DNA of 64,000 nt. Origin: Chloroflexota bacterium. Its GTDB lineage: Bacteria; Chloroflexota; UBA4733. Within the stretch, counting starts at the first letter, position 1. The number at the start of each line of letters is the position of its first letter. Location of the stretch: contig DAIMXP010000002.1 of assembly GCA_036734945.1 (NCBI GenBank), forward strand, positions 70,981 through 134,980, given 5' to 3'. A program made the translations under genes and the position numbers. Below the pieces are notes generated by a model. The model saw nothing but the letters and a program-made list of their open reading frames with translations, was not told where the DNA came from and did no database searches. Positions 9,049-37,682 of the stretch are shown here, in pieces.

Positions 9049-11250
9049 ATGGAGCGTTGGCCCTTCCTGTTGCGGGAAGGTCGTCGGACCGCAGCATTGC
9101 TGGTCTGCACGTTGTTGCTCAGCAGTTGTGCCTCGCGGAGTGCGCCGGCGGCGAGCTCCGGTGGCGGCGGCCAGGTGCCCCCGCCGGCTACCCAGCCCAC
9201 CTTCACCGTCACCCGGGGCACCATTACCGACATCATCCAGTCGTCGGGCCGGGTGGTCGCCGCCCAACAGCAGGTGCTGTATTTCCGGCAATCTGGCCAC
9301 CTGAACACGATCTCGGTGCATTTGAACGACAAGGTGAAGGCCGGTCAGGTGCTTGCCACGCTCGATACGAGCGGGCTGCAAACGCAGATTCAACAGGCAC
9401 AGGCAGCCGTGGACGCGGCCAACCTGACGCTAGAGAAAGACAAGGAACTCCAGGTGACCCAGGCGACCAGCGGGACCCAGGCGACCAGCGGGACCACGGG
9501 TGGCACGGTGGTCACGCCGCAGGACGTGGCGTCGGCGGACGCGGCCGTCAAGAGTGCGCAGGCGGCGTATGATGGAGCGCAGGCCAATCTGGCGGCTGTG
9601 CAAACGCCAAATGCGCAGGCCGTCGAGCAAGCGCAAGCTGCCGTTGTGCAGGCGCAGTCAGCTGTGGGTAAGGCACAGCTTCGCTTGCAAGCGCTCACGG
9701 CCGGCCCTAGCGCTACTGATCTGCAGCAGGCGCAGGCGGGGGTGCGCAGCGCTCAGGCCAAGGTAGACGCTGCCCAGCAGCAATTGAAGGTAGTGCAGGC
9801 CGGGCCGACGGCCGTCCAACTGGCCAAGGCGCGCGCCACACTGGAGCAGGCTCAGGCTCAGTTCCAGTCGGCGCTCGCTGCCTATGACGCCTTCCAGAAC
9901 GGACCGACCGATGCGCAACGACAGCAAGCGACGCTGGCCGTAACGCAGGCCAAAAACGCCCTGTTCGCGGCCCAGACGAAGCGAGACAGCGTGTGCAATA
10001 ACGCCGCCAACAAGACCGCGAGCCAGGCCTCCTGCGATGCGGCGAACTCGACAGTGAATACCGCCCAATCCAACCTTGACGCGGCGCAGAGCGCCCTTGG
10101 CCAACTCAGCGACGTGTTACCGACCGATCGTCTCGCCGCTGAAGCCGCCTACAGAAAAGCAGAGGACACCTTCACTGCCGCTCAGCAAACCTATCAGGAG
10201 ATGCTGCAGGGGGCGTTGCCCGCGTCGTCCGGCAGTGGCGCGAGTTCGAGCGGCCACATCAGCCATGCGACGCAGGTAGCGCAGGCGCAAGCTACCGTCC
10301 AGCAAGCACAAGCGTCGGTTATCGCCGCCCAGGCAGCGGTTACCGCCTTGACGCCAACAGCCAACCAGGTTGCCCAGGGTCGCCAGGCAGTGGTTAGTGT
10401 GCAGGCTGGCCTGCAAAGTGCGCAGGCGCAACTCAACAGCCTGCTTAGCCCTCCGGCGACGCTCGTCAGGCAGGCCCAGGACCAGGTGACCCAGGCGGCG
10501 AATGCCATAACAGGCGCACAAGCGCGGGCCCAAAAGTTGCGGGACCTGGTTGGTTCGGCGGATACCGGCGCTCTGAGTCTCGCCATTGACCAGAATGCTG
10601 TCCAGCAGGCGCAACTTGGAGTGGAAGCCTTGCAAGACCAGCTCTCCCAGATGCAGATCGTGGCGCCGTTCGACGGCGCGGTGATCGGCTCCTCCGGCCA
10701 GGCTGGGGCCCAGGTCGGCGCGTATACGCCAGTGCTCACCATCGCCAATCCGCAAACCCTCAAGGTTGCTGTGGACCTCTCGCCAGACCAGATGTCCCGC
10801 GTGGCGATTGGGCAAAAGGTGAATCTCACGTTGCGAGAGTTCCCTGGCCAAAATATCAGCGGTGACGTGACCGGCTTGCCGAGCGCGGTCCTGGCGGCCA
10901 GCAATCAAAACCCGAATAGCCCCGGCGCGGCAGCGGCGGCCGGCGCCGGGGCTGCATCATCGGCGGCGGCGGTTGATCCTGCGGCGGTGATCATCACGCC
11001 GAAGTGGCCGGCCAGCGGCGCCAACATCGGCTCCGTCGCCAAGCTCAGCATCAGTGCGGAGACTCGGAGCGATGTCCTGCTGGTGCCGACGCAAGCGATC
11101 AATAAGTCTAACAACCGCATCTTCGTCCTGGTGGATCAGAACGGCCATGAGGTGCCGGTGAATGTCCAGATCGGTATCCAGAATACTGATCTGACCGAGG
11201 TGCAATCAGGGTTGCAGGCCGGGCAGAAGGTCTTCCAGCGCGCCGGCTGA
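9049..11250 (+). CDS. HlyD/efflux-adaptor family lipoprotein with very long Ala/Gln-rich coiled coil
   Basis: ATG at 9049 follows GGAGGAG. Lipobox LLLSSC, biotinyl-lipoyl-like hairpin (VKAGQVLATLD ... IVAPFDGAVI) and about 400 aa of AQ-rich heptad-like sequence. No ABC or RND partner is adjacent. Confidence 0.75.
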   Translation: MERWPFLLREGRRTAALLVCTLLLSSCASRSAPAASSGGGGQVPPPATQPTFTVTRGTITDIIQSSGRVVAAQQQVLYFRQSGHLNTISVHLNDKVKAGQVLATLDTSGLQTQIQQAQAAVDAANLTLEKDKELQVTQATSGTQATSGTTGGTVVTPQDVASADAAVKSAQAAYDGAQANLAAVQTPNAQAVEQAQAAVVQAQSAVGKAQLRLQALTAGPSATDLQQAQAGVRSAQAKVDAAQQQLKVVQAGPTAVQLAKARATLEQAQAQFQSALAAYDAFQNGPTDAQRQQATLAVTQAKNALFAAQTKRDSVCNNAANKTASQASCDAANSTVNTAQSNLDAAQSALGQLSDVLPTDRLAAEAAYRKAEDTFTAAQQTYQEMLQGALPASSGSGASSSGHISHATQVAQAQATVQQAQASVIAAQAAVTALTPTANQVAQGRQAVVSVQAGLQSAQAQLNSLLSPPATLVRQAQDQVTQAANAITGAQARAQKLRDLVGSADTGALSLAIDQNAVQQAQLGVEALQDQLSQMQIVAPFDGAVIGSSGQAGAQVGAYTPVLTIANPQTLKVAVDLSPDQMSRVAIGQKVNLTLREFPGQNISGDVTGLPSAVLAASNQNPNSPGAAAAAGAGAASSAAAVDPAAVIITPKWPASGANIGSVAKLSISAETRSDVLLVPTQAINKSNNRIFVLVDQNGHEVPVNVQIGIQNTDLTEVQSGLQAGQKVFQRAG

Positions 11251-12331: not shown

Positions 12332-14446
12332 TCACACTGTCGTCCAAACGTCCTCCGGCGCCCGGTTGAGTTGTTCCGCCAGCGTTGCCGGGTCGCCGGT
12401 GGGCGCCAGGCAGACGAAGTGTTCGCACACGTAGGCGGTGGCTGCGCCGTCGAGCATCGGCCGTCCTGCCAGCAACGGGATGCGGGCCGCAGCGCGCACG
12501 TCGTCTGGATCGGCCACTGCCAGGACGTGGTTGGGCAAGTAGTTGCCGTAAACCTGCTGGACGAGCGCCTCCGTCGCGGCGGAAGCGAGCGGGCCGACGA
12601 TAGCTACCTCTTTCGGTGTGCCCAGGGAGAAGTCAAAGGCACAGAGCAGGCGACCGAAGGCGCTGGGATATTGCTGGGCGACGTCGGCCATAGCGTTCAG
12701 CCACAGGACAGCGCGCTCCTCAAGGTCCGGTTGTTGGGTCAGCGTTGCCATGCGGAGCAAGACGTCGCAGGCGACCGAGTTGCCGGAGGAAATGGCGTTG
12801 TCCATCACGTCCTTCGGGCGCCGGATGAGTTCCTCGTGGTCGTCGCTGGTGTCGAAGAAGCCGGCGCCGTCGGCGTCGTGGAAGTGCGTCACCAGCTCGC
12901 CGATTAGCGCCTGGGCTGCTTCGAACCAGCGGAGATCAAAGGTGGTTTCATAGAGCGCCAGCAGCCCATCGGCGTAGTTGGCATAGTCTTCCAGGTAGCC
13001 GTTGATGTGTACCTGACCGTTGTTGTAGGCATGCAGCAGCCGGCCGCGTACCAGCATATGGTCCAGCACGAACTCGGCGTTGCGGATGGCGGTTTGCTGG
13101 TAGTCGGGACGGCCTAACACTGCGGCGGCTTCGGCGAAGGCGCGTAGCGTCATGCCGTTCCAGGAGACCAGCACCTTGGTGTCGAGGCCGGGCGGTACGC
13201 GCTTTTCCCGAGTGGATAGCAGCAAAGGCCGGGCACGCTCGACCGCCGCCAGTACATCCGTCTCCGGCAGGCGCGCCATTGCCGCCACCACATCGAGGTC
13301 GCGCGGGCAGTGCAGTATGTTGGATCCCTCGAAGTTACCGCCGGTGGTTACGTCGTAGTACGGCGCCAGGATGCGCGCATCGGCTGGGGTGAGCACGGCC
13401 TGCAACTCATCCAGGGACCAGACGTAGAATTTCCCTTCTTCGCCTTCGCTGTCGGCGTCTTCGGCGGAGTAAAAGCCGCCTTCCGGCGATGTCATGCGGA
13501 GCTGGACGTAGTCCAGTGTCTCCTCGGCGATGCGGCGGTAGAGAGGGTTTTGTGTCGCCTGCCAGGCGTTGAGATAGAGGCGCGCCAGTTGGGCGTTGTC
13601 GTAGAGCATCTTCTCGAAGTGCGGCGCCAGCCACTTGGCGTCGGTGGAGTAACGGTGAAAGCCGCCGCCCAACTGGTCGTAGATGCCGCCGCGCGCCATG
13701 CGCTCCAGCGTCTTTTCGACCATAGCCAGCGCTTTGGCGTCATCCTTGCGCTTCCAGGTGCGCAGCAGGAAATCCAGGTTCATCGGCTGGGGGAACTTCG
13801 GGGCCTGGCCGAAGCCACCGTTGGCAGCGTCGTAGCCTTCGGCCATCCCCACGGCGCAGCGATCCAGGAAGCCGCTATCCAGTTGCCGCTCTGTCGCTTG
13901 CCCGGCCAGCCGCCGGCCCAACTGGCCGCGTATCTGCTCGGCGCTCTGCACGATCTCGTCGCGGCGGCTGGTCCAGGCGTCGTGGACGCTCTCCAGTACC
14001 CGCCGGAAGCTGGGTATGCCACGGCCTTCGTTCGGCGGGAAGTAGGTGCCGCCGAAGAAAGGGACACCCTCCGGCGTGAGGAAGGCGGAGAGCGGCCAGC
14101 CGCCTCGACCCGTCAGCGCCTGCACCGCCTCCATGTAGATACTGTCGAGGTCCGGCCGTTCTTCGCGATCCACCTTGATGTTGACGAACTGACGATTCAT
14201 GATCTCGGCGGTATCGACGTCTTCGAACGACTCCCGTTCCATGACGTGGCACCAGTGGCAGGCGGAATAGCCGATCGACAGAAAAATAGGGCGATCTTCT
14301 TTCCGCGCCAGTTCCAGGGCCTCGCTGCCCCATGGATACCAATCTACCGGGTTATGGGCATGCTGGAGCAAGTAAGGGCTGGTCTGCCCTGCCAGCCGGT
14401 TGGTATGCACGGGCGTACCCCCGTTGGTCTCCTGCGTTTCCGTCAT
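12332..14446 (-). CDS. thioredoxin-domain protein of the YyaL/SSP411 (DUF255) type
   Basis: [46 protein letters not shown], followed by a six-hairpin glycosidase-like C-terminal region. I chose the start MTETQE at 14446. Confidence 0.9.
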
Positions 14447-14641
14447 CACTGCTTCTCCATCCGTCCTGGCAACCAGAGGCATGATAACCGTGAGAGGCAG
14501 TGGCGCTGCCGTGACCGCGGGCGGCATCGCTTACTGTCGACCGCTCGCCTCACGCCTGCCCGGTATGCTGGTGCAGGAACCTGCGTGTTTGCCGTTGACC
14601 CATTCGGGACGGTCGCGGTGACAACTGGGAAGGAGCCACAC

Positions 14642-22188: not shown

Positions 22189-22514
22189 TGAGGCGGCGCG
22201 CGCTGGCGTTCGCTCCGCACCATCGCCGGCACTGCGACGGTAGCGAGCACGCCGCTTTCCCGCCCAGCTCACGGCGTCGTAGGCTATGTCTGGCTTGGCA
22301 CACTGGTCGTGCCTTGGGGGTACGAGTACGGGAGCGCATACACTGTCACCACTTTGTCTCACCGGCGTCCGCCTGGACGGCGCGACGCTGTTCCTGGACG
22401 CGAAAGCGGTGAAAGATGGGGCACCGTGCTCCGCCCCGCCGCCAACCACCGCGTTGACCTCTCGATGCTTGAGAGTGGTGCCGCTGGCGCCGCCAGCGAG
22501 ATGCCACCCTGGTC

Positions 22515-22594
22515 GGAACGCAAGGAATCTTTTGCGATTGTAGACCGTTCGCAAACGCAACTTTGCGCCCGCTTGCCGTATAGTCCCTGCAGTC
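22515..22594 (+). promoter_or_regulatory. conserved upstream element U1 of the peptide cassettes (operator/promoter candidate)
   Basis: About 80 bp, near-identical to 25938..26017. Contains the palindrome TTTGCGA-N11-TCGCAAA (22531-22555), then TTGCGCC-N7-CGTATAGT. Ends 46 bp before the MauE-like start. Confidence 0.5.
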
Positions 22595-22640
22595 CTTCAC
22601 ACTCTTGCTGGGCACCGTGGAGTTGCGGTGGAGAGAAGCC

Positions 22641-23219
22641 ATGGCATCGAATACCGTCGCGCAGGTGCAACTGGTGCTGCGGCTGACGCTGGGTTTAATC
22701 TTCCTGGCCTCCGCGCTGGCGAAGTTACGTCATCCAACGCTCTTCGTGCGCGGCGTGCTGGACTATCAGGTGCTGTCAACACCGTTGGCGGGGGCGTACG
22801 GGCGGCTGCTGCCGTTCATCGAACTTGGGACGGCACTACTACTGTTCAGTGGCTTTCTTCTGTTGATCGCCATCGGGCTTTCGATACTGATCCTCCTCAG
22901 CTTTGCTATCGCCATCGTGGTAGTCCTGACGCACGGGCGGCAGTTGCGCTGTCACTGCTTCGGTGAGGCTTCCACCGGATATGTCGGCTGGCATACCCTT
23001 GGTCGAGATGTGCTGCTCTTGCTCGTTGCCCTGTGCCTACTGGTCCTGGTGCACCTAACAGGTGGAAGCGCCCCCGGTTGGCTGAGTACTGACTTTGGCT
23101 GGGACGCTGTTGCGTTTGCCACTGCAGCGCTCATTGCGCTCACCTATGAACTGATCGCGCAGGGACTTGATGTGCTCATGAGCTTGCGGCATCCGCGGGC
23201 CATTGGGGAGCGGTGGTAG
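22641..23219 (+). CDS. MauE/DoxX-family redox-associated membrane protein (cassette A)
   Basis: Multi-TM protein. LRLTLGLIFLASALAKLRHPTLFVRGVLDYQVL ... RCHCFGE is the MauE-type pattern. ATG at 22641 follows GGAGAG. Confidence 0.8.
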   Translation: MASNTVAQVQLVLRLTLGLIFLASALAKLRHPTLFVRGVLDYQVLSTPLAGAYGRLLPFIELGTALLLFSGFLLLIAIGLSILILLSFAIAIVVVLTHGRQLRCHCFGEASTGYVGWHTLGRDVLLLLVALCLLVLVHLTGGSAPGWLSTDFGWDAVAFATAALIALTYELIAQGLDVLMSLRHPRAIGERW

Positions 23220-23237: not shown

Positions 23238-23867
23238 ATGGGTGCCGAAATGTGGTGGCATGTGGCTACGATTATCGCCTTGGTCCTGGCGGCGGCCGAG
23301 GCCATCTTACTGCTCGGTTTGACGCGGGTGGTAGCGCCGCTTGTGACAGGATCTGGTCCACGGCAATCGGCCGAACGCGGGGTGGCCGTGGGGACAATAA
23401 TGCCGGCAATGCGGTTGCCGGCGGCGGATGATGGGTGCCTGCAACCCGTGATCGGAGACGGCATCGATCGTGTCGTGCTTTTCATTTCACCGTCCTGCCA
23501 CGTATGTACCACCGTGCTACCAACGCTGCAGCCAGCAATTACACAGAGTGGTCGCCGTTGGGAGGTCGTCGCGGTAGTTTGCGGTCCACGAGCGGCTGCT
23601 GAGGAATACGCGCGCGCTATCGATCCACGAATACGCACCTTGCTTGATCCAGACAGCGCGGTCGAATCAGCCTTCGCGACCGGTCGCGCCTACCCCTTTG
23701 CCTTTGCCGTCAGCAGCGAGGGGATTGTTCGCGCCCGAGGTGTGGGAGGAAGTTGGGAAAGGCTGAATCACCTCGTGGCTGAGGGCGCAGGTGCTGGAAG
23801 ATTTACATCCGAGGCCGTGATAACCAGCGTCGTGGCGGCGGATCGGTCCGTTGTCACTCGTGGTTAG
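23238..23867 (+). CDS. membrane-anchored thioredoxin-like protein, divergent MauD-like (cassette A)
   Basis: N-terminal TM helix (WWHVATIIALVLAAAEAILLLGL) followed by VVLFISPSCHVCTTVLPTL (CxxC on a thioredoxin-like fold). Confidence 0.65.
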   Translation: MGAEMWWHVATIIALVLAAAEAILLLGLTRVVAPLVTGSGPRQSAERGVAVGTIMPAMRLPAADDGCLQPVIGDGIDRVVLFISPSCHVCTTVLPTLQPAITQSGRRWEVVAVVCGPRAAAEEYARAIDPRIRTLLDPDSAVESAFATGRAYPFAFAVSSEGIVRARGVGGSWERLNHLVAEGAGAGRFTSEAVITSVVAADRSVVTRG

Positions 23868-23896: not shown

Positions 23897-24169
23897 ATGA
23901 CTGATCTCAGTGGACGTTCGGCGATTTGGATAGGAGAGCAACTGAATCGGCGCGGGTTTGTCGGCCGCTTGGGCCGGGCAGCGACGCTAGCGACGTTTGT
24001 GGCGGCTGGTTTGGCGCTGGTGGCACCGGAGATTGCCAGTGCGGACTTACCCTGTTGCTCTAGCTGCTTGGTGTCGTGCTGTGATTCCATGTCCTGTTAT
24101 TGTTGCTCCTATAACACGGGGCAGTGCCCCAACGCTTCGTGCTCCGGCACGTGTAATCCTACCTGCTAG
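23897..24169 (+). CDS. Tat-signal cysteine-rich precursor P1 (49-aa leader + 41-aa core, 12 Cys)
   Basis: NRRGFVGRLGRAATLATFVAAGLALVAPEIASA | DLPCCSSCLVSCCDSMSCYCCSYNTGQCPNASCSGTCNPTC. RR motif, hydrophobic region and AxA cleavage site. Confidence 0.8.
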   Translation: MTDLSGRSAIWIGEQLNRRGFVGRLGRAATLATFVAAGLALVAPEIASADLPCCSSCLVSCCDSMSCYCCSYNTGQCPNASCSGTCNPTC

Positions 24170-25686: not shown

Positions 25687-25937
25687 GGTAGGTACTGGGA
25701 AGTGGAACGTTTTGCATCCCCCGCCTGAGGCACGCCATAGCAGCAGGGATAGGAGGTCACCGCCAGGCTACATACGTCGATTCGACCAGGTAGGCTACCA
25801 CGCTTGCTAGCCGGATGTTGACAGTGCGTCCCTACGGTGCGCAACTGCAGCGCTTGCAAGGGGATGCGCCAGAGCAACTGGTGCTCTTTTTCCACGACAG
25901 CCACGGCTATTGGGTCGCCCTGGGACCACCAGCCGTT

Positions 25938-26017
25938 GGAATGCAAGGAATCTTTTGCGATTGTAGACCGATCGCAAACACAAATTTGCACCAACTTGTC
26001 GTAGTGTGGTTGCAGTC
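25938..26017 (+). promoter_or_regulatory. conserved upstream element U2
   Basis: GGAATGCAAGGAATCTTTTGCGATTGTAGACCGATCGCAAACACAAATTTGCACCAACTTGTCGTAGTGTGGTTGCAGTC. Near-identical to U1 and ends 25 bp before the MauD-like start. Confidence 0.5.
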
Positions 26018-26042: not shown

Positions 26043-26600
26043 ATGACTGGAATTTGGCTCACCGCATTCGTGGCCCTCTGGCTAGTCGTGCTGCTTCTCG
26101 TAGCCATCGTGATCGGGGTGCTTCGCCACATCGGTATTCTCTATGGTCAGATGGTCCGTTCTTCGGGACCTCCAACAGAGTTGCGTATCGGGCAGTTGCT
26201 GCCAGACCTGAATTTACTGACGTCCAATGAGACAACAATGACCATCGGCCAATTCGCAGGAAGAATCTCAGATGTCGTTTTGATTAGTCCCGGATGCACC
26301 GAGTGCGAAAGGCTACTGGATCTCTTGGTAGAGGGCGATGTAGCCGGAGATCCAGCGGATAGACGAGTGATCATCAGCATAGGAGATATGCTGGCGACAC
26401 GCGAGATCCTGCAGAGTCATCAGGTTAGTCTGGATGATACAGTCTTGATCGATACAGGGGACAAGATTAGAAGGTTGTGGGGAGCCCACACAACGCCCGT
26501 GACAATTGTGGTTGACGAGCATTTAATGGTGGTGAGACAGGTCGTAGGTGTGGTCGATTCTCGGCACCTTCTACCTTTACCACAGCAGATTTGTGTTTAA
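26043..26600 (+). CDS. MauD-like membrane-anchored thioredoxin (cassette B)
   Basis: MTGIWLTAFVALWLVVLLLVAIVIGVLRHIGILYGQ ... VVLISPGCTEC. Same architecture as the copies at 31041 and 37721. Confidence 0.8.
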   Translation: MTGIWLTAFVALWLVVLLLVAIVIGVLRHIGILYGQMVRSSGPPTELRIGQLLPDLNLLTSNETTMTIGQFAGRISDVVLISPGCTECERLLDLLVEGDVAGDPADRRVIISIGDMLATREILQSHQVSLDDTVLIDTGDKIRRLWGAHTTPVTIVVDEHLMVVRQVVGVVDSRHLLPLPQQICV

Positions 26601-26679: not shown

Positions 26680-27096
26680 ATGCCAGGAGCACCGTCGGTC
26701 AATGTGCGGCCGTTGTCGCCAAAGCGGGACATTCCCGGTATCCTCTGGTCTTATACGCCGACATTGGGCGACGTTGGTGACGAGGCGTACTTGGGGCGCA
26801 TCGTAGTGGAGGTTACCGATGACGCAGAAAGGGTCGTGTTTATCGGTGTGAATGAGTCGATCGCTCGGCGGGCTGCAGCAGCCCTACAAGGAGGACATTC
26901 GTTTCCGCGGTCGGCCACCATTTGGCCGACAGTACCGATTACCGGAGCGGTACCCTCCGGGCAAATATATCGAGGGAGGGTGATTCTGGAATTCTGGAGT
27001 TCTACTATGAACATCGCGGTCTCAGAACTCGGCGGAAGAGCCGCCGAGTTGGTACTGCGCGCAGGCAAGGTGCTGGAGTCCTTCCCGGCTGCGTAG
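26680..27096 (+). CDS. uncharacterised cytoplasmic protein, cassette-specific family X (copy 1)
   Basis: 138 aa, with no signal peptide or TM segment. Shares YLGRIVVEV...IWP...YRGRVILEFW with 31699..32145 and 33757..34200. Confidence 0.7.
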   Translation: MPGAPSVNVRPLSPKRDIPGILWSYTPTLGDVGDEAYLGRIVVEVTDDAERVVFIGVNESIARRAAAALQGGHSFPRSATIWPTVPITGAVPSGQIYRGRVILEFWSSTMNIAVSELGGRAAELVLRAGKVLESFPAA

Positions 27097-27260: not shown

Positions 27261-27620
27261 ATGAACGAGAAGCTGACTGTGCTGGATCGACTGACGAGGT
27301 CTGCGGCATTACGGCTGTCACGTCGTCGTCTTGGTGGGAAAGTGCTGACAGCTGGTCTCCTTGCAGCGCTCGTACAGTTATTCGGGTTGGGTGTGCTGCC
27401 TGCCTATGCCATCACCTGCTGCGGTGATCCCTATTGCAAAGACTGCAGTGTGACATGCAGTGGCTGTGCGTGCGGCGGCACGTATAGCGGCGTGGTTTGT
27501 AGTCCAAACGGGCTGTACTGTGCGGATGACACTTGTCCCGATTGCTACGGTTATCTCTATAAGTGCTGTGCTTACGCGTGTAATAGCGGCTGCACAGGCG
27601 GATATTTGTCGGTATGCTGA
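27261..27620 (+). CDS. Tat-signal cysteine-rich precursor P2 (50-aa leader + 69-aa core, 16 Cys)
   Basis: ATG follows GGAGG. MNEKLTVLDRLTRSAALRLSRRRLGGKVLTAGLLAALVQLFGLGVLPAYA | ITCCGDPYCKDCSVTCSGCACGG...CSPNGLYCADDTCPDC...LSVC. Confidence 0.8.
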   Translation: MNEKLTVLDRLTRSAALRLSRRRLGGKVLTAGLLAALVQLFGLGVLPAYAITCCGDPYCKDCSVTCSGCACGGTYSGVVCSPNGLYCADDTCPDCYGYLYKCCAYACNSGCTGGYLSVC

Positions 27621-28434: not shown

Positions 28435-29931
28435 TTACGCCGGCGGTACTGTACCTTTCACGAACTCGGTCGGGCTCAGGATGGTGCGATCTTCCGGCGT
28501 TGTCTTCGCGCACATCTCTCGTCCACGGCGCTTGAGTTCCTCGACGACATCTTGACGCGCCTTCCAAGGCAGCAGCTCCAATTGGCGCTGGAAGAGGCTG
28601 ACGCCGTGGACGAGAAACGCCACGGAGATTTCGGGGTCCAGCAGCCGCCAGGGAACGTCGCGGAGGATCGTCTGCACGTCCTGCAGCCCCGCCTCCCGGA
28701 AGCACTGCGCCGTCTCGCCGGGCACTGGGAGACGTCCGGGGAGGAGCGGCGGCGAGCCGCCCTTGCTATGCTGCCGGGCGAGGTCCAAGATCGGAGCGAA
28801 CCACTCCCGGCACCAGGGCTGATCGAGGGAGAATTGGCATGCTGACCACACCGCAACAGCACCACCGGACTTCGTCACACGCCGCATCTCCGTCAGCGCT
28901 CGCGGCGCCTCCGTGAGGTGGAGGAAGGACGTGCCCACGGTAGCAGCGAAGGCGCCGTCGCGGAACATGGGCAAGTGCTCGGCCGCTGCCCGGGTGAAGG
29001 TGACGTTACGGGCGTGCCGCTGCTTGGCCTTCGCCTTTGCCCGCTCCAGCATGCCGGGGGCGGGGTCTGTGGCGACGATCGAGCCGGTCGGTCCGATGGC
29101 CTCCCACAGCCCGCCCTCGAAGGTCTGGGTGGCCATGCCGCAGCCTACCTCCAGCACCTTGCCGCCGATGGGCAGCGACGCGAAGGCGGTAAATGCCTTG
29201 CGGCCTTCCAGGGCATCCGGCACCATTTGGGCGACCCGGGTGTCCCAATCCGCGAAGAGGTTGAACTGAGACAGGTAGATCAGCTGGAGCCGCCGCTCCA
29301 GGTAGCCGGAGGACTCCAGGACCTGACGCACCTCGTGGTAGTGCGCCTCGCCGAACGTGGTCTGCACCACTACCCGCCGCCCATCTCGCACCTCCATGGC
29401 GAGGAGGCCGGCGGCGATGCCGCCCAACAGTTCATCGTTGAGGGCATAGCCGACCCAGGGGCGGTGCAGTTTGCCGCGTACGAAGTCCTCTTCGGCGATA
29501 GCCCCGTAGTGGCGGACGGCGGTGTGGTTCTCGGCGAAGGTGACGACGCCGTAGACCCGCACCAGGGCCCCGAAGCCGCGCGCGGCGACGAAGCGGCGCA
29601 CGCGGGCGATCGCCATGGCTGCGAGGTCGGGACTGACGCGGATGCGCCCGAGTGTCTCGTGCGCGGCGGCTGCGGCCGTGGAGACGAGCGTCTCGTGGGC
29701 AGCCGTCCGCCCCATACGGATGGGGGCGGGGTAGCCGTCGAGAACCTGAGTGCGCAGGGGCTCCTTCCAGTGATCGACAGCGAGTTGGGCCGCCTCCTGA
29801 GCGAGCTGGTCCTGGCTGTCGAAGGCGATATATTCCTGTTCCAGCCCGGCGAGCCAGGGATCCACAATCAGGCCGTCCGCCAGGAAGGCGCGCAGGTCGT
29901 CCTCCAGGCCGACCAAGAGCGGCGGCGGCAT
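28435..29931 (-). CDS. class I SAM-dependent methyltransferase with ~250-aa N-terminal domain of unknown function
   Basis: I chose the start MPPPLL at 29931, preceded by AGGAGG. Motif I is VLEVGCGMA, with DPAPGMLERA downstream. It is the only minus-strand gene inside the cassette array. Confidence 0.8.
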   Translation of the reverse strand: MPPPLLVGLEDDLRAFLADGLIVDPWLAGLEQEYIAFDSQDQLAQEAAQLAVDHWKEPLRTQVLDGYPAPIRMGRTAAHETLVSTAAAAAHETLGRIRVSPDLAAMAIARVRRFVAARGFGALVRVYGVVTFAENHTAVRHYGAIAEEDFVRGKLHRPWVGYALNDELLGGIAAGLLAMEVRDGRRVVVQTTFGEAHYHEVRQVLESSGYLERRLQLIYLSQFNLFADWDTRVAQMVPDALEGRKAFTAFASLPIGGKVLEVGCGMATQTFEGGLWEAIGPTGSIVATDPAPGMLERAKAKAKQRHARNVTFTRAAAEHLPMFRDGAFAATVGTSFLHLTEAPRALTEMRRVTKSGGAVAVWSACQFSLDQPWCREWFAPILDLARQHSKGGSPPLLPGRLPVPGETAQCFREAGLQDVQTILRDVPWRLLDPEISVAFLVHGVSLFQRQLELLPWKARQDVVEELKRRGREMCAKTTPEDRTILSPTEFVKGTVPPA

Positions 29932-29980
29932 CAGGCACTCCTTCCTCCTGGGGAAGACGTGGGCGGACGCTCCCCGATTA

Positions 29981-30721
29981 TTGCGAGTGTATGCTATCCT
30001 CGTTGGCAAACCTCGGGGCCGGCGGCGCCACTCCCTCACGCAAAGCCGGTTCTTGCTCACCACGAGTCGGCACTTCCGGTCGCTCCTAGATGAGATCCTC
30101 CTGCAGTACGACCTCACGGCGACGTCGGCCACGTTGCGGGCGGCGCTGGAAGACCGGGAGCAGCCGGTCGTGCTCCTGCACGTCGAGCGCTGGGATACGG
30201 AGGCGGCGGGCCTCGTTGGGCGTCTGCTGGAGAGCACACCGCACGTCTACGTCATCTGTCCGCAGGCGGCCGATCTGCGCGTCGTCATCACCGTCTTGAA
30301 GACCGCCGCCGCCGATGCAACCGCTGACACCCCGCTGGCATAGCATGCCCTCGCGCTCAAGATTCGGCGGGTCGTGCGGGAACCGGAGCCCTGGCAGTGG
30401 CAGCTTGGTAGCCGCCGCTTCGTCCCGGCGGAAGGCCGTCTGTACGATCAGGGAAAGCGTATTGCGTTGACGGCAGCGGAGGTGCGGCTGCTCCGGCGGC
30501 TCTGCCTGGTCAGCGGAACGGAACCGCCCGGACGGTTGACGGTGGAGCAACTGGCATGGGAATTGGGCGGTAAGGCGACCAGCCGCGTGTCTTCGGCCCG
30601 CAACTACATCACGCAATTGCGGCGCAAGCTGGGCGATGATCCCAAAAAGCCGGTGATTCTCCGGCGCGACCGGGACGGGTATTGGGTCATCCTCGGCCTC
30701 CTCCCGGAACCATTGCATTGA
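29981..30721 (+). pseudogene. OmpR-type regulator with pseudo-receiver domain, interrupted by in-frame TAG (30341-30343)
   Basis: ORFs 29981..30343 and 30374..30721 share one frame. The read-through junction is ...ADTPLA*HALALKIRRVVRE, which falls in the receiver-output linker. The receiver lacks the acidic pocket and the phospho-Asp (FLLTTS, VLLHV). The output domain is LTAAEVRLLRRL...ITQLRRKLGDD...RDGYWVI. Confidence 0.6.
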
Positions 30722-30805: not shown

Positions 30806-30863
30806 TCTGGGAACCTATCCCCTGGTACGGGCCTGATCGCAGATCCTGCGGGGAGGACCGGGT

Positions 30864-31010
30864 ATGACGTCGAGTGGTCTCACCGAGGTGCAGCTGGCGC
30901 TGGGGCTGATCTTTCTCATCTCCGCCGGGGCCAAACTGCGCAACACGGCCGCTTTTGTGCGCGGACTGGCGGATTATGATGTCAAACTCTTCTCGATGAT
31001 GGCCACATAG
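30864..31010 (+). pseudogene. MauE-like N-terminal stub (48 codons)
   Basis: Own translation: MTSSGLTEVQLALGLIFLISAGAKLRNTAAFVRGLADYDVKLFSMMAT*. It aligns with the first ~45 aa of the MauE-like proteins at 22641 and 37107 and then stops. Confidence 0.6.
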
Positions 31011-31040: not shown

Positions 31041-31610
31041 ATGAGCGGTCTTTGGCTAGTCTCGTACGTTGTCATGTGGATCACTATTCTGCTCGTCGTT
31101 GCCTTGCTAATTGGAATCCTAAGGCATATTGGAATATTGTACGAACAGAGCGGCCGGCACCGAGCGTCGACTGATCTTCGTGCAGGTCAGGTTCTTCCTG
31201 ACCTCACCTTGAGTACCTTCGACGGAAGTCGTCTCCGCATATCTCATTTTGCGGGACATGCGACACATTTCGTGGTTGTGGCTCCTAACTGTTCAGCTTG
31301 CGGCGAGTTGCTGAGTCGCTTGCAAAAAGCAGCCAGCGACGACAGCGGTGCCATGGAACGACACGTCATCGTGAGCATGGGAAATCGGGCGGCCACGGCG
31401 GAATTACTTCAAGTGGCCGGAATGGTGCCTAATAGCTCGGTTCTAATTGATGAAGATGAGAAGATCAAAGGGGCTTGGGGAGTTCGGGCTACTCCGGTCA
31501 CACTGGAAGTTGACGAACAACTGAAAGTACTTAGGCAGATCATAGGTGCCGCCGACCTACGTCAACTTCCTCCACTAGTGCAACTCAGCGGAGCGCCGCA
31601 AGCAAACTAG
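31041..31610 (+). CDS. MauD-like membrane-anchored thioredoxin (cassette C)
   Basis: MSGLWLVSYVVMWITILLVVALLIGILRHIGILYEQ ... FVVVAPNCSACGELL. Confidence 0.8.
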   Translation: MSGLWLVSYVVMWITILLVVALLIGILRHIGILYEQSGRHRASTDLRAGQVLPDLTLSTFDGSRLRISHFAGHATHFVVVAPNCSACGELLSRLQKAASDDSGAMERHVIVSMGNRAATAELLQVAGMVPNSSVLIDEDEKIKGAWGVRATPVTLEVDEQLKVLRQIIGAADLRQLPPLVQLSGAPQAN

Positions 31611-31698: not shown

Positions 31699-32145
31699 AT
31701 GGCTACCGGTTCAAGTGGCCTAATCCCGGCGGTAGTCCCTATGCCAGGTTCCGGCCGGTCATCACCGGTTGCAGCTGTTCCAGGAGTCTGGGCGCACTTC
31801 ACGACCCTTGGGACTGTAGCCGGTGAGCAGTATCTGGGACGCATCGTGGTCGAACTGTTCGATGGGCGTGATCCCCCCGCGGTGGCCTTCATTGGCGCAG
31901 ATCGACAACTCGTTGAACGCGCAGTCGCCGCCTTGGGTGGGGGGGATGTGCCAGGGCCGGAACCTGCTATGTGGCCAGCCGGATCAATCATCGTCCCCAG
32001 CGAGCCAGCCGCAGCGTATCGCGGGCGGATCATGATGGAGTTTTGGCAAAGAACGGTGAAAGTTACCGCGTCGGGATCTGCTGGCAATACGGCGGATCTT
32101 GTCCAGCGAGCACTTCAGGCTTTGCAACGGGTTGGAGCGAGGTAG
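31699..32145 (+). CDS. uncharacterised cytoplasmic protein, family X (copy 2)
   Basis: YLGRIVVELFDG...MWPAGSIIVPSEPAAAYRGRIMMEFW. Paralogue of 26680..27096. Confidence 0.7.
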   Translation: MATGSSGLIPAVVPMPGSGRSSPVAAVPGVWAHFTTLGTVAGEQYLGRIVVELFDGRDPPAVAFIGADRQLVERAVAALGGGDVPGPEPAMWPAGSIIVPSEPAAAYRGRIMMEFWQRTVKVTASGSAGNTADLVQRALQALQRVGAR

Positions 32146-32312: not shown

Positions 32313-32702
32313 ATGGATATGACCAGGCACGACGTGACAGACAGACTCGGCGATCAACGCGCGGAACTGGGAGCATTCGATCGACTGACCAAAGCAACAG
32401 CGCTAGCATTGTCTCGGCGGCGAGTGCTAGTCGCTGGAGTGGTTACCTGGGCGGTACAACTGCTCGGCGTCGAGATCGCCAGCGCAAACGCATGCGAGTA
32501 CGGGTGCAACACTTGCTGCTTCGCTGCATGCGGGAATTGCGGCGTTTGTCCACCGGGAGGTGCCATGTGTTGCAGCTCAGGCGGCGTTTGCCAATCGGTT
32601 CCTTGCTGCAGGTGCGGAAGTTGTGGCGCATGTGGCTACTTTAGTCTTTGCTTCAAGGTCTGTGATGATGGCTGTAGTGAGACTTGGTGCCCCGCATGCT
32701 AG
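32313..32702 (+). CDS. Tat-signal cysteine-rich precursor P3 (58-aa leader + 71-aa core, 20 Cys)
   Basis: ...AFDRLTKATALALSRRRVLVAGVVTWAVQLLGVEIASA | NACEYGCNTCCFAACGNCGVCPPGGAMCCSSGGVCQSVPCCRCGSCGACGYFSLCFKVCDDGCSETWCPAC. Confidence 0.8.
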   Translation: MDMTRHDVTDRLGDQRAELGAFDRLTKATALALSRRRVLVAGVVTWAVQLLGVEIASANACEYGCNTCCFAACGNCGVCPPGGAMCCSSGGVCQSVPCCRCGSCGACGYFSLCFKVCDDGCSETWCPAC

Positions 32703-33201: not shown

Positions 33202-33618
33202 ATGGAACCCGATGCCGCGGCCACGCAATGGAGCGCGGCCCTTCGCAAATCCGGTACCTTCGATCGGCTGATCAAGGCTACGGCGATCAGGCTGTCTCGT
33301 CGCCGCTTCGCCGGGAATGTGCTGGCCGCGACAGCGGCCGCCTGGGCGGTGCAGCTATTAGGCTTCCCTACGCCCCCCGTATATGCATTTGACTGCACCA
33401 ATTGCAATTGCTGTACCGGTGTCTGTAGCTGCCTATACGCCCCCGCGAGTTGTTGTAGCCCGAATGGTGTCTACTGCTACTCGGGAGATTGCACTTGTCA
33501 GGGTCGAGACTGTCAGTGCGGATGCTTTGCAATGTTCTTCAACGTCTGCAATGACGGATCACATGCCACGAGTTGCCCGGCCTGCAACTACCCTTGTCCA
33601 ACCTGCAACCCTTGTTGA
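33202..33618 (+). CDS. Tat-signal cysteine-rich precursor P4 (62-aa leader + 76-aa core, 20 Cys)
   Basis: ATG follows AAAGGAG. ...TFDRLIKATAIRLSRRRFAGNVLAATAAAWAVQLLGFPTPPVYA | FDCTNCNCCTGVCSCLYAPASCCSPNGVYCYSGDCTCQGRDCQCGC...CPTCNPC. Confidence 0.8.
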   Translation: MEPDAAATQWSAALRKSGTFDRLIKATAIRLSRRRFAGNVLAATAAAWAVQLLGFPTPPVYAFDCTNCNCCTGVCSCLYAPASCCSPNGVYCYSGDCTCQGRDCQCGCFAMFFNVCNDGSHATSCPACNYPCPTCNPC

Positions 33619-33756
33619 GACAAGTCTGACCTCTTACGAAAATTCTCGAAGTGGGGGAAGTGTGTTTCTTCTCGCGAGAGAGCAAGCGGGTTCTGGGTTG
33701 ACGGTTACAGCAGAGCGTCAATGAGCGGTGAGGTAAAGCTTCGAGGAGGTGGCATA

Positions 33757-34200
33757 ATGTCAGGAGTCGGTTATCAGCCAACATTCGCGCCAGTACGAGT
33801 GCCCCAACAATGGATCGCCCGAATAGGCCCGAGTAGTAGTCCCGCCGTTTGGTCATTGGTTCCGACATTGGGGCGGGTGGCTAGCGAGAAGTATTTGGGC
33901 CGCATCGTGGTAGAGGTCTTCGACACTGGAGGTAAAATCGCCCTGCTTGGCATCGGGAAGGAATACATCCCACGGGCGATCGCGGCTCTGCAACAGACGG
34001 GGGCATTGCCGCACGAGACGACAGTTTGGCCTTCCGAACCAATCATGGGCCACCAATTACCCGACCAGACCTACCGTGGCTGAGTTGTCGTTGAGATGTG
34101 GGAGGTGGGTACTAAAGTGAATGGATCGTCCAGCACCGATGCGAGCGTAAGCTTGTTGCATCGAGCCAGCGAGGCCTTGAGGATTTTCCCTATCCTGTGA
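33757..34200 (+). pseudogene. family X paralogue (copy 3) with in-frame TGA at 34081-34083
   Basis: KYLGRIVVEVFDTGG...VWPSEPIMGHQLPDQTYRG*VVVEMWEVGTKVNGSS...ALRIFPIL*. The TGA replaces the Arg of the conserved YRGR(V/I)xxEFW motif, and the frame stays open to 34200. Confidence 0.6.
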
Positions 34201-34966: not shown

Positions 34967-35554
34967 GTGCGACTTGACTATCTCAACGAGCAGACGGCCG
35001 TTCGTCTCTGTCAGCGAGGCGATCCTGCAGGTCTGGCTTCGCTCGTGCTGCGACAACAGGCTGAAGCGCTCAGAGTGGCTGCGTTGATCACCCGAGATCC
35101 GCAACTCGCGGAAGATGTCGTGGCGGATGCCTTTCTCACCGCGTTTCGACGCATCCATAGCTTTGATGCTGAGCGCCCGTTCCGGCCTTGGTTCCTGCGC
35201 GTGGTTACGAATACGGCGCTGAAGTCGCTCCGCTCTCGTCGTCGCGAGATACCCTGGCTTGCTACTGCGGATCATGGGTCGTCTACGGTACCCGTGCCCT
35301 TCGGTATCGCTGCGCGGGCGGAGGAGAGCACAGCCAAGGACATAGCGACGGTAGACGATCATGAAACCGTCCGTTGGGCACTGCGGGCACTTCCACCGAA
35401 GCAACGCGCTGCGATCATTCTCAGGTACTTCGCTGATCTGAACGAAGGGGAAATCGCGCTGGCACTGGGCATTCCAAGGGGAACGGTGAAGTCGCGTCTT
35501 TCCAATGGAATTGCTCGCTTGCGCGTCAAACTCGTCGAGACCTGGCCATCCTAA
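34967..35554 (+). CDS. ECF-type sigma-70 family factor (1)
   Basis: Region 2 (AEDVVADAFLTAFRRIHSFDAERPFRPWFLRVVTN) and region 4 (LPPKQRAAIILRYFADLNEGEIALALGIPRGTVKSRL). GTG start. Confidence 0.85.
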   Translation: MRLDYLNEQTAVRLCQRGDPAGLASLVLRQQAEALRVAALITRDPQLAEDVVADAFLTAFRRIHSFDAERPFRPWFLRVVTNTALKSLRSRRREIPWLATADHGSSTVPVPFGIAARAEESTAKDIATVDDHETVRWALRALPPKQRAAIILRYFADLNEGEIALALGIPRGTVKSRLSNGIARLRVKLVETWPS

Positions 35555-35572: not shown

Positions 35573-36931
35573 ATGGATCCGTCAACCATTCGCCAAGTCC
35601 TGGAAGAGGAAGCCGAAGTATTGGTTCCTTTCCCTGCCGATCTCAGGCCACGCGTTCTGCTAGCGCTCAGCGCTGAGCGCGCCGCCGCGCAGAGACGGCG
35701 CTTTGGTGTCGTTGGAGCCATCCTTGTGGCGGTTGTCGCGCTTGCCGTCACTCTGGGGCCCGCCTACGCGGGCGCTATCGGCCAAGACGTGGTCGCGCGA
35801 CTGCAGGTAGCGCTTGGTGGAAGGACCGAAGTGCAAATGCAGCGCGACGTGCAAGCGCCAGTCGCTGTCGCTCCCAGTCCTCCCTTTTCCGTATTCCAGC
35901 CGACCGCCCTTCCCGTGGACCTGCCGCGTCGTGGGGTGACCTATGACCCCGGCGCGATAGACCCCGCTACGGGGCTGCGCTTACCCTCGGTGGAGGGAAC
36001 AGGTGACGTCGACTACGTGCGCCTTGGTCTTCGCATCGAGCGGCGGGATGCGTTTCTCCTCGTGCGCTACGTCGGCTCAGCCGACCGGGGCACCGGGGGT
36101 CGCGAACTCATTCTACTCGAGCGCCAGGCGACACACGCGGAGCAACTTCCCGCTGGCTCCCGCATGCAAGTCCTCGGTCAGCCAGCGTCACTCGGAAGGA
36201 CAGCGAACGGGCTCCTGCTGTCCACCATCATGAGTGGTACCTGGCTACAGGTCTGGACGAATGTGAGTCAGATGGAGCTGGATCAGGTTGTGCGAAGCTT
36301 ACAAATGACTTCCCCTGGCAACGGCGCACCGGCACCTCCGACCTATCCAACGGCGACACCCGCTCCCAGCCCTGTTCCCGGCAGCTATCCTCCCTTAGTG
36401 CATCCGACATATCTCCCGGCCGGCTTCGACAACGCGAGTATCGGCTACTTTACGATCCCTCCTGAGGGCCAGAACCTCAGGCTTCCACCGTTGAATTCCG
36501 GGGTCTCCGGGCCGGTCCGACGATCGGACCTCAAGCCGATTCTGGAGCGGCTTGACTGGCCGCAAATCGAAAAGGCCTGGAACGCCGTAGGAGGCGGCGT
36601 GTTCGGAGGCTTCTTTACGGGCGACACCAAGTTGGACTTTCTTGAGATCGGACCGGTCCGTCTCGATGGCAGCCCGGATGGCACTGCTATGACCACCGAC
36701 GGAGGCCGCACCGTCTGGATGGTCGGGAGTGAGGCAGGCGCCGGGTTCAAAGCCCGCTGGCGAGACGGTTCTCCTTTGGATCTCACGGAGAGCTACCTTG
36801 CCCAAAACCCCAATCCCAGAGCGCGAGAGGTAGTCATCTGGGTCGATGGAGATCGCGTCGTGTGGCTACGCTCCGACCTACCGCAGACCGAGATGCTCAG
36901 ATTCATCGACGGGCTGACGACGAATCGCTGA
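35573..36931 (+). CDS. single-pass membrane protein, putative anti-sigma factor with large extracytoplasmic domain
   Basis: Starts 19 bp after the sigma gene. Short cytoplasmic N-terminus, then TM segment FGVVGAILVAVVALAVTLG, then ~380 aa outside the membrane. No zf-HC2 motif was seen, so the role is inferred from position. Confidence 0.5.
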   Translation: MDPSTIRQVLEEEAEVLVPFPADLRPRVLLALSAERAAAQRRRFGVVGAILVAVVALAVTLGPAYAGAIGQDVVARLQVALGGRTEVQMQRDVQAPVAVAPSPPFSVFQPTALPVDLPRRGVTYDPGAIDPATGLRLPSVEGTGDVDYVRLGLRIERRDAFLLVRYVGSADRGTGGRELILLERQATHAEQLPAGSRMQVLGQPASLGRTANGLLLSTIMSGTWLQVWTNVSQMELDQVVRSLQMTSPGNGAPAPPTYPTATPAPSPVPGSYPPLVHPTYLPAGFDNASIGYFTIPPEGQNLRLPPLNSGVSGPVRRSDLKPILERLDWPQIEKAWNAVGGGVFGGFFTGDTKLDFLEIGPVRLDGSPDGTAMTTDGGRTVWMVGSEAGAGFKARWRDGSPLDLTESYLAQNPNPRAREVVIWVDGDRVVWLRSDLPQTEMLRFIDGLTTNR

Positions 36932-37106: not shown

Positions 37107-37682
37107 ATGCCGCTCGCGATCACGTCAGCGGTTCAAGCCGGTTTAGCATTCTTTGTCGGTGTCGTTCTCCTGCTCTCCGGCGCTCCAAAAATCGCGGCTC
37201 CGCGCTCGTTTGTCCGTGTCGTGGTCGATTACGAGGTGCTTCCTACCGCACTCGCGCGCCTCTATGGCGTTGCATTGCCTTGGGTGGAGTGCGTGGTTGG
37301 TTTGCTGCTGCTGACCGGCTTCTTGTTGCAGGTCGCGGCCGGGCTCGCCGTCCTCACATTCGTGAGCTTCTTGATCGCGGTGTCCATCAATCTGCGCCGT
37401 GGGCGCGACATGGACTGCCACTGTTTTGGCGACGCTCTTTCTGATCGCATCGGTCGGAGTACGGTCGTGCGCTTGGTGTTGGTTCTTATCCCTTCCTTGC
37501 TTGTGCTGCTGTCCGCGCCGCCGGGAGTAGGCGGTCCCTGGATCGGTGGTCAGGCCTCACGCCTCGGTGGCGATCTTGGGATTCTCCTTCCGCTAGCCTT
37601 CGTGTCCCTCACGCTGGTGTTGCTGTACGTCCTAGTGACGCAGGTGCTCGCCATGGCCGAACAGCGGGCGAGTAATGCCTGA
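37107..37682 (+). CDS. MauE/DoxX-family redox-associated membrane protein (cassette E)
   Basis: GVVLLLSGAPKIAAPRSFVRVVVDYEVLP...LPWVECVVGLLLLTGF...DCHCFGD. Confidence 0.8.
   Translation: MPLAITSAVQAGLAFFVGVVLLLSGAPKIAAPRSFVRVVVDYEVLPTALARLYGVALPWVECVVGLLLLTGFLLQVAAGLAVLTFVSFLIAVSINLRRGRDMDCHCFGDALSDRIGRSTVVRLVLVLIPSLLVLLSAPPGVGGPWIGGQASRLGGDLGILLPLAFVSLTLVLLYVLVTQVLAMAEQRASNA

Follow-up and report, generated by a model that had tools for sequence, protein, structure and literature searches.

Candidate oxidative-folding cassettes for cysteine-dense mini-proteins with twin-arginine leaders in a Chloroflexota genome

Why would a bacterium encode, within 16 kb, five short proteins whose predicted mature parts consist of cysteine to 21-29%? 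The question arises from a 64,000-nucleotide stretch of DNA (the window) of a Chloroflexota bacterium (GTDB lineage UBA4733; GenBank assembly GCA_036734945.1, contig DAIMXP010000002.1, positions 70,981 to 134,980, forward strand), where five open reading frames (ORFs), P1 to P5, specify precursors with a twin-arginine (RR) leader and a Cys-dense core, in an array of cassettes that also encodes the membrane protein MauE and MauD-like thioredoxins. On the sequence evidence set out below, we consider it fairly probable that the array consists of dedicated oxidative-folding cassettes, built on the mauE-mauD-mauA plan, for disulfide-dense, anionic mini-proteins exported by way of twin-arginine translocation (Tat). 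The precursors are as follows (lengths in amino acids, aa).

23897-24169, plus strand: P1 precursor, 90 aa; 49-aa RRGF-type leader and 41-aa core with 12 Cys
27261-27620, plus strand: P2 precursor; 50-aa leader (LDRLTR…SRRRL) and 69-aa core with 16 Cys; family profile match at 9.6e-36
32313-32702, plus strand: P3 precursor; 58-aa leader and 71-aa core with 20 Cys; family profile match at 1.1e-29
33202-33618, plus strand: P4 precursor; 62-aa leader and 76-aa core with 20 Cys; carries CCSPNGVYC, VCNDGS and CPAC
38399-38788, plus strand: P5 precursor; ARRGFLK leader and 79-aa core with 16 Cys, ending in CPDCP; family profile match at 1.6e-21

A scripted recount returned exactly the Cys numbers that a first-pass annotation of this DNA had counted by hand (12 in 41 residues for P1, 16 in 69 for P2, 20 in 71 for P3, 20 in 76 for P4 and 16 in 79 for P5), every one of them even, and the same core ends (NPTC, LSVC, CPAC, CNPC and CPDCP). 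As that annotation had also stated, charged residues are few, with two to eight in each core (acidic plus basic: P1 2+0, P2 5+2, P3 4+2, P4 4+1, P5 7+1). The leaders contain no Cys at all. In a six-frame scan for Cys density across the 64 kb, the five precursors were clear outliers, and just a handful of ORFs reached at least 7 Cys per 40 residues.

Are these ORFs real genes? Most are preceded at 6-12 nucleotides (nt) by a purine-rich ribosome-binding stretch, and the P1 gene lies 29 nt from the gene upstream and 29 nt from the gene downstream. The window DNA is found again in several metagenome assemblies (JGI, ENA and Logan), and some of the gene finders used there called the precursors. P1 is 84% identical in protein sequence to a homologue on a contig from another metagenome (locus L018), the surrounding DNA being 78% identical; synonymous divergence (dS) between the two genes is 0.57, the ratio of nonsynonymous to synonymous divergence (dN/dS) amounts to 0.15 for the whole gene and 0.087 for the core, and 12/12 Cys are retained. 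Judged by this comparison, the P1 gene is under purifying selection. We regard all five ORFs as genuine genes, each encoding a small secreted protein.

When the five precursors were compared with the Pfam and NCBIfam models, the one match was that of P5 to a Tat model, below threshold. Word-indexed homologue searches returned just 8 and 15 proteins; the first of them, run over 5.8 billion sequences, brought up no more than four relatives beyond the window's own proteins. A metagenome scan with a narrower precursor alignment yielded 3 loci. By contrast with these word-indexed searches, which missed most members, an exhaustive profile search of 1.84 billion representatives made the family visible: it retrieved 93 proteins at E <= 1e-3, all of 84-169 aa, about 85 of which span at least 90 of the 115 profile positions. 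These 93 members are themselves clusters at 50% identity. Their sole annotation at source is 'hypothetical protein' and our literature search found no paper on them; the family is so far nameless and undescribed, with no Pfam or NCBIfam model.

The members share an N-terminal plan in which a variable N-terminus is followed by a helical xDRLTKxxAxxLSRRxF segment, a Gly/Ala-rich hydrophobic stretch and P-V/A-x-A. The core, of about 70 residues, has 14 Cys columns, each 77-100% conserved in the alignment, on the scaffold CNxCxGxCxxC … CCSPNGxYC … CxC … C.C … VCDDGS … CPxC. This scaffold and the leader are conserved, and the loops between the cysteines are highly variable. By their alignments P2, P3 and P4 are ordinary family members and P5 is a distant one, and P1, together with the relatives P0008 and P0031, is a short divergent form that retains CCSYNxGxC and the C-terminal Cys. 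The family cores consist of 23% Cys, 11.5% Ser and 10.7% Gly, with Asn, Thr and Pro also abundant; Lys, Leu, Ile, Met and His are scarce (K+R+L+I+M about 8%; His 1.3%, Met 0.4%). Individual cores range from 14 to 31% Cys, with many CC, CxC and CxxC motifs, and their median net charge is -2.

In what state are the cysteines? The parity of their number is informative here. In the window alone, five even counts of five would arise by chance once in 32 cases. Across the family, 77/79 mature cores (cut at the aligned AxA column; range 8-22 Cys) hold an even number (binomial p ~1e-20), as do 85/95 whole proteins. Parity also extends beyond the family: among 18 Cys-rich proteins (the five of the window, four close relatives and nine MauE neighbours from other families), 17 have an even count, and the one exception has an extra Cys at a lipobox-like position. 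Moreover, when P0031 is compared with P1, one Cys has been lost and another gained, so that the total is still 12. Even counts are the expected mark of full Cys-Cys pairing, and neither metal-thiolate clusters nor thioethers to residues other than Cys offer a rationale for them. The proposal of the first-pass annotation that the cysteines are fully disulfide-paired is thus strongly supported at the level of sequence, by the 77/79 parity, by the compensation in P0031 and by the MauE/MauD-like pair that lies directly upstream in every independent locus.

That pair is encoded in the window as follows.

22605-23219, plus strand: MauE-1; PF07291 at 83.3 bits against a cut-off of 27; CHC at residues 116-118; five predicted transmembrane (TM) segments
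23238-23867, plus strand: MauD-like thioredoxin 1 (CHVC), membrane-anchored; AhpC-TSA match at 1.5e-7, TIGR02661 at 4.8e-7, below its cut-off
26043-26600, plus strand: MauD-like thioredoxin 2 (CTEC), with no adjacent MauE; by alignment, 44.5% identical to thioredoxin 3
30846-30983, plus strand: MauE remnant upstream of cassette 3, about the first 50 residues only; tblastn identity of 52% to residues 7-56 of MauE-1, E 8.6e-6
31041-31610, plus strand: MauD-like thioredoxin 3 (CSAC); AhpC-TSA and Redoxin matches, alignment
37107-37682, plus strand: MauE-5; PF07291 at 90.4 bits against a cut-off of 27; CHC at residues 104-106
37721-38347, plus strand: MauD-like thioredoxin 5 (CGPC); AhpC-TSA, Redoxin and Thioredoxin matches, alignment

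The window MauE ORF begins with TTG, and MauE-1 has an alternative ATG start at 22641. MauE proteins from two phyla replace DsbB in E. coli by means of a CxC motif, and the authors of that work regard MauE as a general disulfide-forming protein with a thioredoxin-fold partner (bioRxiv 10.64898/2026.03.05.709764). Both window MauEs carry this motif as CHC, placed after the TM2/TM3 hairpin, and CHCFG is invariant in our MauE alignment. The four thioredoxins share with MauD an uncharged N-tail, an anchor, the motif LRQ/H-[IV]G-[ILV]L, the CxxC and a cis-Pro; the cassette-1 protein, the one scanned against NCBIfam, scored 29.4 bits with the TIGR02661 MauD model, whose equivalog cut-off is 188.6. 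We call them MauD-like because they share these features and that cut-off was not reached.

In 8/8 independent loci whose sequence extends far enough, MauE, a MauD-like protein and the precursor follow one another in this order. The canonical mau cluster has the same succession, mauE-mauD-mauA, as on a Paracoccus yeei plasmid and in the Paracoccus arrangement mauFBEDACJG, and there too it ends in a small disulfide-rich protein with a Tat signal. The likeness extends to the parts: a MauE with CxC, a MauD with CxxC behind an uncharged N-terminal anchor, and a substrate with a MauA-like leader. A scan of species genomes for MauE identified ten loci, mostly in Chloroflexota metagenome-assembled genomes (MAGs); in 7/10 of them MauE and a MauD-like protein are followed by a different Cys-rich protein with an RR leader, none of which belongs to a Pfam family.

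The differences from the mau system are as plain. Cys density is two to three times higher here (21-29% in the five cores of the window; the MauA precursor, of 188 aa, has 12 Cys), the mature domains bear no relation to MauA, and a Trp pair from which tryptophan tryptophylquinone (TTQ) could form is absent: the mature core of P3 has a single Trp, and those of P1, P2, P4 and P5 have none. The cassettes come without a large subunit, MauG, amicyanin or any further mau gene; found there instead are protein X (described below) or a lipoprotein and genes for a sigma factor of the extracytoplasmic function (ECF) type and its putative anti-sigma factor. Homology to MauA was considered for the Cys-rich groups of loci L008/L009/L012 and L014-L016, and possibly for the window family, and was rejected for the mature domain, as PDB profile searches and hhalign match the leader only.

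How would the precursors leave the cytoplasm? RR is present in 93/95 proteins and invariant in all alignments. The RR motifs proposed earlier for P1 to P5 (NRRGFVG, SRRRLGG, SRRRVLV, SRRRFAG and ARRGFLK) and the AxA-type sites (IASA, AYA, IASA, VYA and AWA) were all found where they had been claimed. Set beside the S/T-R-R-x-F-L-K-like context of Tat signals, the RR contexts are RRGFVG in P1, RRGFLK in P5 and SRRR[LVF] in P2 to P4; as had been noted, the two RRGF leaders are those of the precursors encoded between an intact MauE and a lipoprotein. The Ala column at position -1 of the cleavage site is 91% conserved in the family alignment. TIGR01409 matches 41/79 members (best 3.7e-6) and PF10518 matches 23/79 (best 8.9e-6), and these Tat families are the only ones to recur among the 79.

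Leader-only profiles, searched against 177,635 distinct PDB sequences, retrieved almost solely Tat signal peptides. The profile of the P2-P4 type matched NapA (E 0.0024), CueO, the Fe-hydrogenase small subunit, NosZ, HiPIP, OpgD and FdhA; that of the RRGF type, built with P1 and P5 among its members, found as its best match the MauA precursor 3c75_L (E 3.6e-5; aligned segment DDMVEKLSRRVAGRTSRRGAIGRLGTVLAGAALV), followed by other Tat substrates. Consistently, when three Cys-rich groups were compared with Paracoccus yeei MauA by hhalign, the leader alone aligned (E 2e-5 to 1e-4). PDB searches with one leader at a time gave no significant match. A search of the 64-kb window for TatA-like motifs found none; TatC was not searched for. 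Taken together, these profile comparisons support the assignment of the leaders as Tat-type signal peptides of the MauA kind.

Folded cargo is the usual preference of Tat. The first-pass annotation had therefore remarked that a Tat leader is odd on peptides whose disulfides should form outside the cell, and that MauA presents the same paradox; the parallel is apt, since the leaders themselves resemble that of MauA. The paradox is softened because Tat transport of small, unstructured, hydrophilic chains has been published (Richter et al. 2007, J Biol Chem 282:33257, as cited in PMC13186574), and the composition of the cores fits such a cargo.

From these elements we propose the following sequence of events. 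The precursor would be made in reduced form in the cytoplasm, where protein X may, speculatively, hold leaders of the P2-P4 type. The RR leader would then take it to the Tat translocase, which a short, hydrophilic, unfolded chain may pass, and signal peptidase would cleave after the AxA site, as the more than 90% conserved Ala column suggests. Outside, the CxxC of the MauD-like thioredoxin would install 6-10 intramolecular disulfides, and MauE would re-oxidise this thioredoxin through its CxC and pass the electrons to quinone, a chemistry that we transfer from the published work on MauE. The predicted product is a compact, protease-resistant mini-protein. The presence of five divergent paralogues in 16 kb, with variable loops on a fixed scaffold, next to ECF genes and, for P1 and P5, lipoproteins, would fit a function outside the cytoplasm, whether in competition, in signalling or in surface binding.

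Several points weigh against this proposal. (i) The disulfides, the route of export and the site of cleavage are all predictions from sequence. (ii) Cassettes 2-4 contain a thioredoxin and/or protein X and no intact MauE, so that the two intact copies would need to act in trans. (iii) Only the P5 leader, among the five of the window, matches a Tat hidden Markov model, and does so below the cut-off (TIGR01409, 15.2 bits against 16.7). The description of the leaders as canonical Tat signals thus holds for the RR, the hydrophobic stretch and the AxA site, present in all five, but P1-P4 are of Tat type only at the level of family profiles. (iv) The anionic character of the cores (median -2), unlike that of most antimicrobial peptides, makes a role in competition weak. 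(v) Finally, loop 1, the CxC loop and the C-terminal tail of MauE together hold 11-14 Lys or Arg residues, against 1-3 on the opposite side of the membrane. This bias, as scored by a simple hydropathy script rather than a trained predictor, applies to the two MauEs of the window, to eleven homologues and to a canonical MauE of Paracoccus (L035 6914-7477). By the positive-inside rule it would place the redox site in the cytoplasm, in conflict with oxidation after export.

Could the peptides be oxidised before they are exported? The MauE CxC and the MauD-like domain would then both face the cytoplasm, and the peptide would be cross-linked and folded there before it travels as folded cargo, the kind that Tat generally favours. 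Besides the charge bias of MauE, this view can draw on the MauD-like proteins, in which the N-tail is uncharged and the anchor is immediately followed by an Arg. Natural fusions of MauE with a thioredoxin, found in a Thermaerobacter MAG and a Solirubrobacterales MAG (L011 1731-2855; L010 6025-6747), continue into the thioredoxin directly after TM5, with an RRR or R-rich flank, which puts this domain on the same side as the CxC loop. If oxidation preceded export, the Tat paradox would vanish, for MauA as well as for these peptides. Such a pathway would also amount to a natural, substrate-dedicated cytoplasmic disulfide system coupled to Tat, MauA included, and would explain why a MauA-type RR leader is present on every MauE/MauD client seen here. 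A cytoplasmic site, however, conflicts with published results: an E. coli mutant in dsbB regains motility and PhoA activity with either of two MauE homologues, which requires a periplasm-facing site, and TOPCONS places the CxC loop in the periplasm according to the authors (bioRxiv 10.64898/2026.03.05.709764). Moreover, the conserved Arg close to the CxC could be there to bind quinone and be unrelated to topology, and our charge analysis is crude. We regard oxidation before export as improbable.

Alternatively, the peptides may bind metal. As extracytoplasmic metallothionein-like or copper-binding peptides they would be loaded with metal, or folded around it, before Tat export, MauE and the MauD-like proteins would keep their thiols reduced, and the lipoproteins of solute-binding-protein (SBP) type would recapture them. 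This would account for Cys contents of 14-31% with many CC, CxC and CxxC motifs, for the use of Tat, whose cargo is typically cofactor-loaded, and for the SBP-type lipoproteins that adjoin P1 and P5 without transporter genes; in addition, an earlier study, as cited in bioRxiv 10.64898/2026.03.05.709764, proposed MauE as a reductase. Yet metal clusters provide no rationale for even counts in 77/79 cores or for a Cys loss offset by a gain in P0031, His (1.3%) and Met (0.4%) are scarce, and none of the 79 members matched a metallothionein family. Furthermore, MauE acts as an oxidase in vivo according to the same preprint. Metal binding therefore seems unlikely to us.

Are the precursors instead those of peptides that ribosomes make and that are modified after translation (RiPPs), whose core is modified beyond disulfides and for which protein X is a recognition or modifying component? 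A conserved leader before a hypervariable core has the right appearance, and X, whose fold has no PDB match, is strictly co-conserved with precursors of the P2-P4 type. The RiPP-finding method decRiPPter lists three Streptomyces families with mauE as RiPP candidates; MauE (once together with MauD) lies there beside a small precursor of at least 8 Cys (8-10, an even count) that ends in Cys, for example …CPGC, and the loci hold no other mau genes and have uncharacterised products (PMC7794033). Those precursors differ from ours in being 57-66 aa long, with short leaders that lack RR and a hydrophobic signal region, and neither the 14-Cys CCSPNG scaffold nor protein X has been reported for them (PMC7794033). 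Most cassette genes were scanned, and neither among them nor in the gene tables of related loci was a radical S-adenosylmethionine (SAM) enzyme, LanB/C/M, YcaO, protease or ABC exporter recognised. What precedes the core is a signal peptide, AxA site included, and not a RiPP leader, X has neither cysteine nor cofactor motif, and parity favours Cys-Cys bonds over Cys-Ser/Thr or Cys-Cα links. We give this explanation little credence. Very improbable, lastly, is that the precursors are MauA-like small subunits of a surface enzyme or complex with the neighbouring lipoprotein as large subunit: gene order, a MauA-like leader and the co-conservation of a P1-like gene with a following gene for a 497-aa lipoprotein in L018 and L019 speak for it, but the mature parts do not resemble MauA (0 matches in the PDB profile search; leader only in hhalign), no PF02975 match occurs in the five precursors or 79 relatives, four of the five cores have no Trp for a tryptophylquinone, no MauB or MauG homologue was found among the scanned cassette genes, and P2-P4 have no lipoprotein partner.

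We return to the proposed disulfide-dense mini-proteins, and ask what fold they might adopt. An AlphaFold2 model of P4, built from 79 sequences, has a helical leader and a beta-rich core; over residues 71-130 the mean predicted local distance difference test score (pLDDT) is 82-93 in four of six ten-residue blocks, and 71 and 84 in the other two. Foldseek found no match to this model in the PDB (best E 0.66), and the knottin, granulin and metallothionein models of Pfam matched none of the 79 members. Since 6-10 disulfides would be packed into 41-79 residues, these are not classical knottins, whose three disulfides form a I-IV, II-V, III-VI knot within about 30 residues, and the knottin-like fold that had been suggested for them is backed by no test. 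The resemblance to the knottins, defensins, granulins and conotoxins of eukaryotes is one of design only: these too are small secreted proteins with an even, high number of Cys in the core, encoded in multigene arrays, with a conserved signal or pro-region and Cys framework and hypervariable loops. We found no similarity to them in sequence or fold, and the cores described here differ in having 6-10 predicted disulfides, against three in a knottin, and in being anionic, not cationic.

The logic of the proposed pathway is that of DsbB/DsbA and of VKOR, in which a quinone-linked membrane generator serves a thioredoxin-fold carrier and this in turn serves exported proteins. DsbB/DsbA and VKOR are single housekeeping copies, whereas here the pair is encoded per cassette beside one dedicated substrate; in addition, the substrate leader is of Tat and not Sec type, and the charge distribution of MauE misfits an outside-facing active site. 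Peptides of 20-30% cysteine with 6-10 disulfides are not a type for which bacteria are known. The family would provide natural, non-methylotrophic clients for MauE/MauD, for which only the three uncharacterised Streptomyces candidates had been noted before; MauE itself was shown to substitute for DsbB only in 2026. The peptides also make testable an old puzzle, namely why MauA and its look-alikes use Tat if their disulfides form outside. They are short and traceable by mass spectrometry, and their helpers lie in a four-gene cassette, which makes heterologous transfer easy. Further leads are the MauA-like leader as a possible recognition element and the peptides as candidate hyperstable scaffolds.

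The cassettes and the spaces between them contain these further features.

22512-22594, plus strand: upstream element copy 1, 83 nt, directly before MauE-1; palindrome TTTGCGA-N12-TCGCAAA
24199-25686, plus strand: lipoprotein 1, 495 aa; RR signal, then the lipobox LSSC; residue 26 is the sole Cys
25935-26017, plus strand: upstream element copy 2, 83 nt, directly before the cassette-2 thioredoxin; 83% identical to copy 1
26680-27096, plus strand: protein X copy 2, 138 aa; lacks Cys and a signal peptide, built of two beta-beta-alpha repeats
28435-30237, minus strand: ORF of 600 aa that includes a SAM-methyltransferase domain, located between cassettes 2 and 3 and conserved at this place in locus L013
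30374-30721, plus strand: winged-helix regulator (OmpR C-terminal type), PF00486 at 1.9e-6, upstream of cassette 3
31699-32145, plus strand: protein X copy 3, 148 aa, by alignments
33721-34083, plus strand: protein X copy 4, with an in-frame stop; a tblastn match at 33847-34191 runs across the stop
34967-35554, plus strand: ECF-type sigma factor with Sigma70_r2 and Sigma70_r4_2 matches, preceding cassette 5
35573-36931, plus strand: putative anti-sigma factor of 452 aa with a single TM segment; no match in Pfam
38984-40450, plus strand: lipoprotein 5, about 490 aa; RR signal, PF01547 (SBP_bac_1) at 3.3e-12, solute-binding-protein fold

Protein X, of about 140 aa, consists of two YxGR[IV]xVExW…RAxxAL units. 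An AlphaFold2 model of copy 2 (pLDDT 84; predicted template modelling score 0.80) has two-fold beta-beta-alpha architecture; it found no fold match in the PDB with Foldseek, and the sequence matched nothing in Pfam or NCBIfam. X always adjoins precursors of the P2-P4 type, and in other loci it follows every precursor of the DRLTK type. Predicted to be cytoplasmic and conserved with these precursors, it may, on a speculative view, be a partner that binds their leader.

Lipoprotein 1 has a distant relative in lipoprotein 5, the SBP-type protein of cassette 5 (BLASTP E 3e-4). No transporter genes adjoin lipoprotein 5, and the next gene, at 40977, encodes another sigma factor. The putative anti-sigma gene begins 18 nt after its sigma gene, a place that is taken in other loci by genes of 256-323 aa. 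A sigma gene adjoins the module in L007, L020, L028 and L031, and the sigma/anti-sigma pair often lies next to X; a winged-helix gene similar to that of the window is found upstream of MauE in L007 and L013.

The two copies of the 83-nt element share a 26-nt core that occurs twice in the window, against 0 occurrences expected by chance. No copy turned up before the other cassettes or in the other loci compared, and the element is probably a shared operator or promoter region. An ECF-type promoter (GGAAY-N15-18-CGTY) upstream of the cassettes was considered and dropped, as 5 matches against 7.7 expected represent no enrichment.

How did the array arise? Locus L013, from an uncultured Chloroflexi MAG (CALBSQ010000235.1), is syntenic with the window, with 77% nt identity over window positions 40884-42503 and 70% over 28778-29922. 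Between the syntenic flanks it has one MauE/MauD cassette and one 200-aa precursor with 20 Cys, and the contrast with five cassettes in the window points to a local expansion of the array. The array also shows decay, to judge from the MauE remnant at 30846-30983 and the stopped X copy 4, whose similarity extends to about 34191.

Other loci offered some side observations. A family with RR leader, 14 Cys and several Trp follows MauE/MauD in Chloroflexota and Dehalococcoidia MAGs (L014 5084-5470; L015 7203-8363, with three tandem genes; L016 7271-7657). It has the motifs GCWV…TCCDC…WCGCGxDYH, and its leader alone matches MauA; a protein of about 300 aa with an RR signal precedes MauE in these loci. 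In L031 (positions 1-963 and 8236-9903) a Tn3-type transposase, an integrase and a DDE transposase flank the four-gene module, which suggests, from this one contig set, that the cassette can move; the L031 precursor gene (within 5423-5956) had been missed by the source's gene finder. The window array itself is surrounded by genes that look like ordinary chromosomal ones (288-4575, 6153-8759, 12332-14527 and 44976-50141), among them glycolate-oxidase-like GlcD/E/F and ClpB; further surrounding genes encode a DUF255 (DsbH-type) thioredoxin protein and a 1721-aa helicase of DEAD-box/MrfA type.

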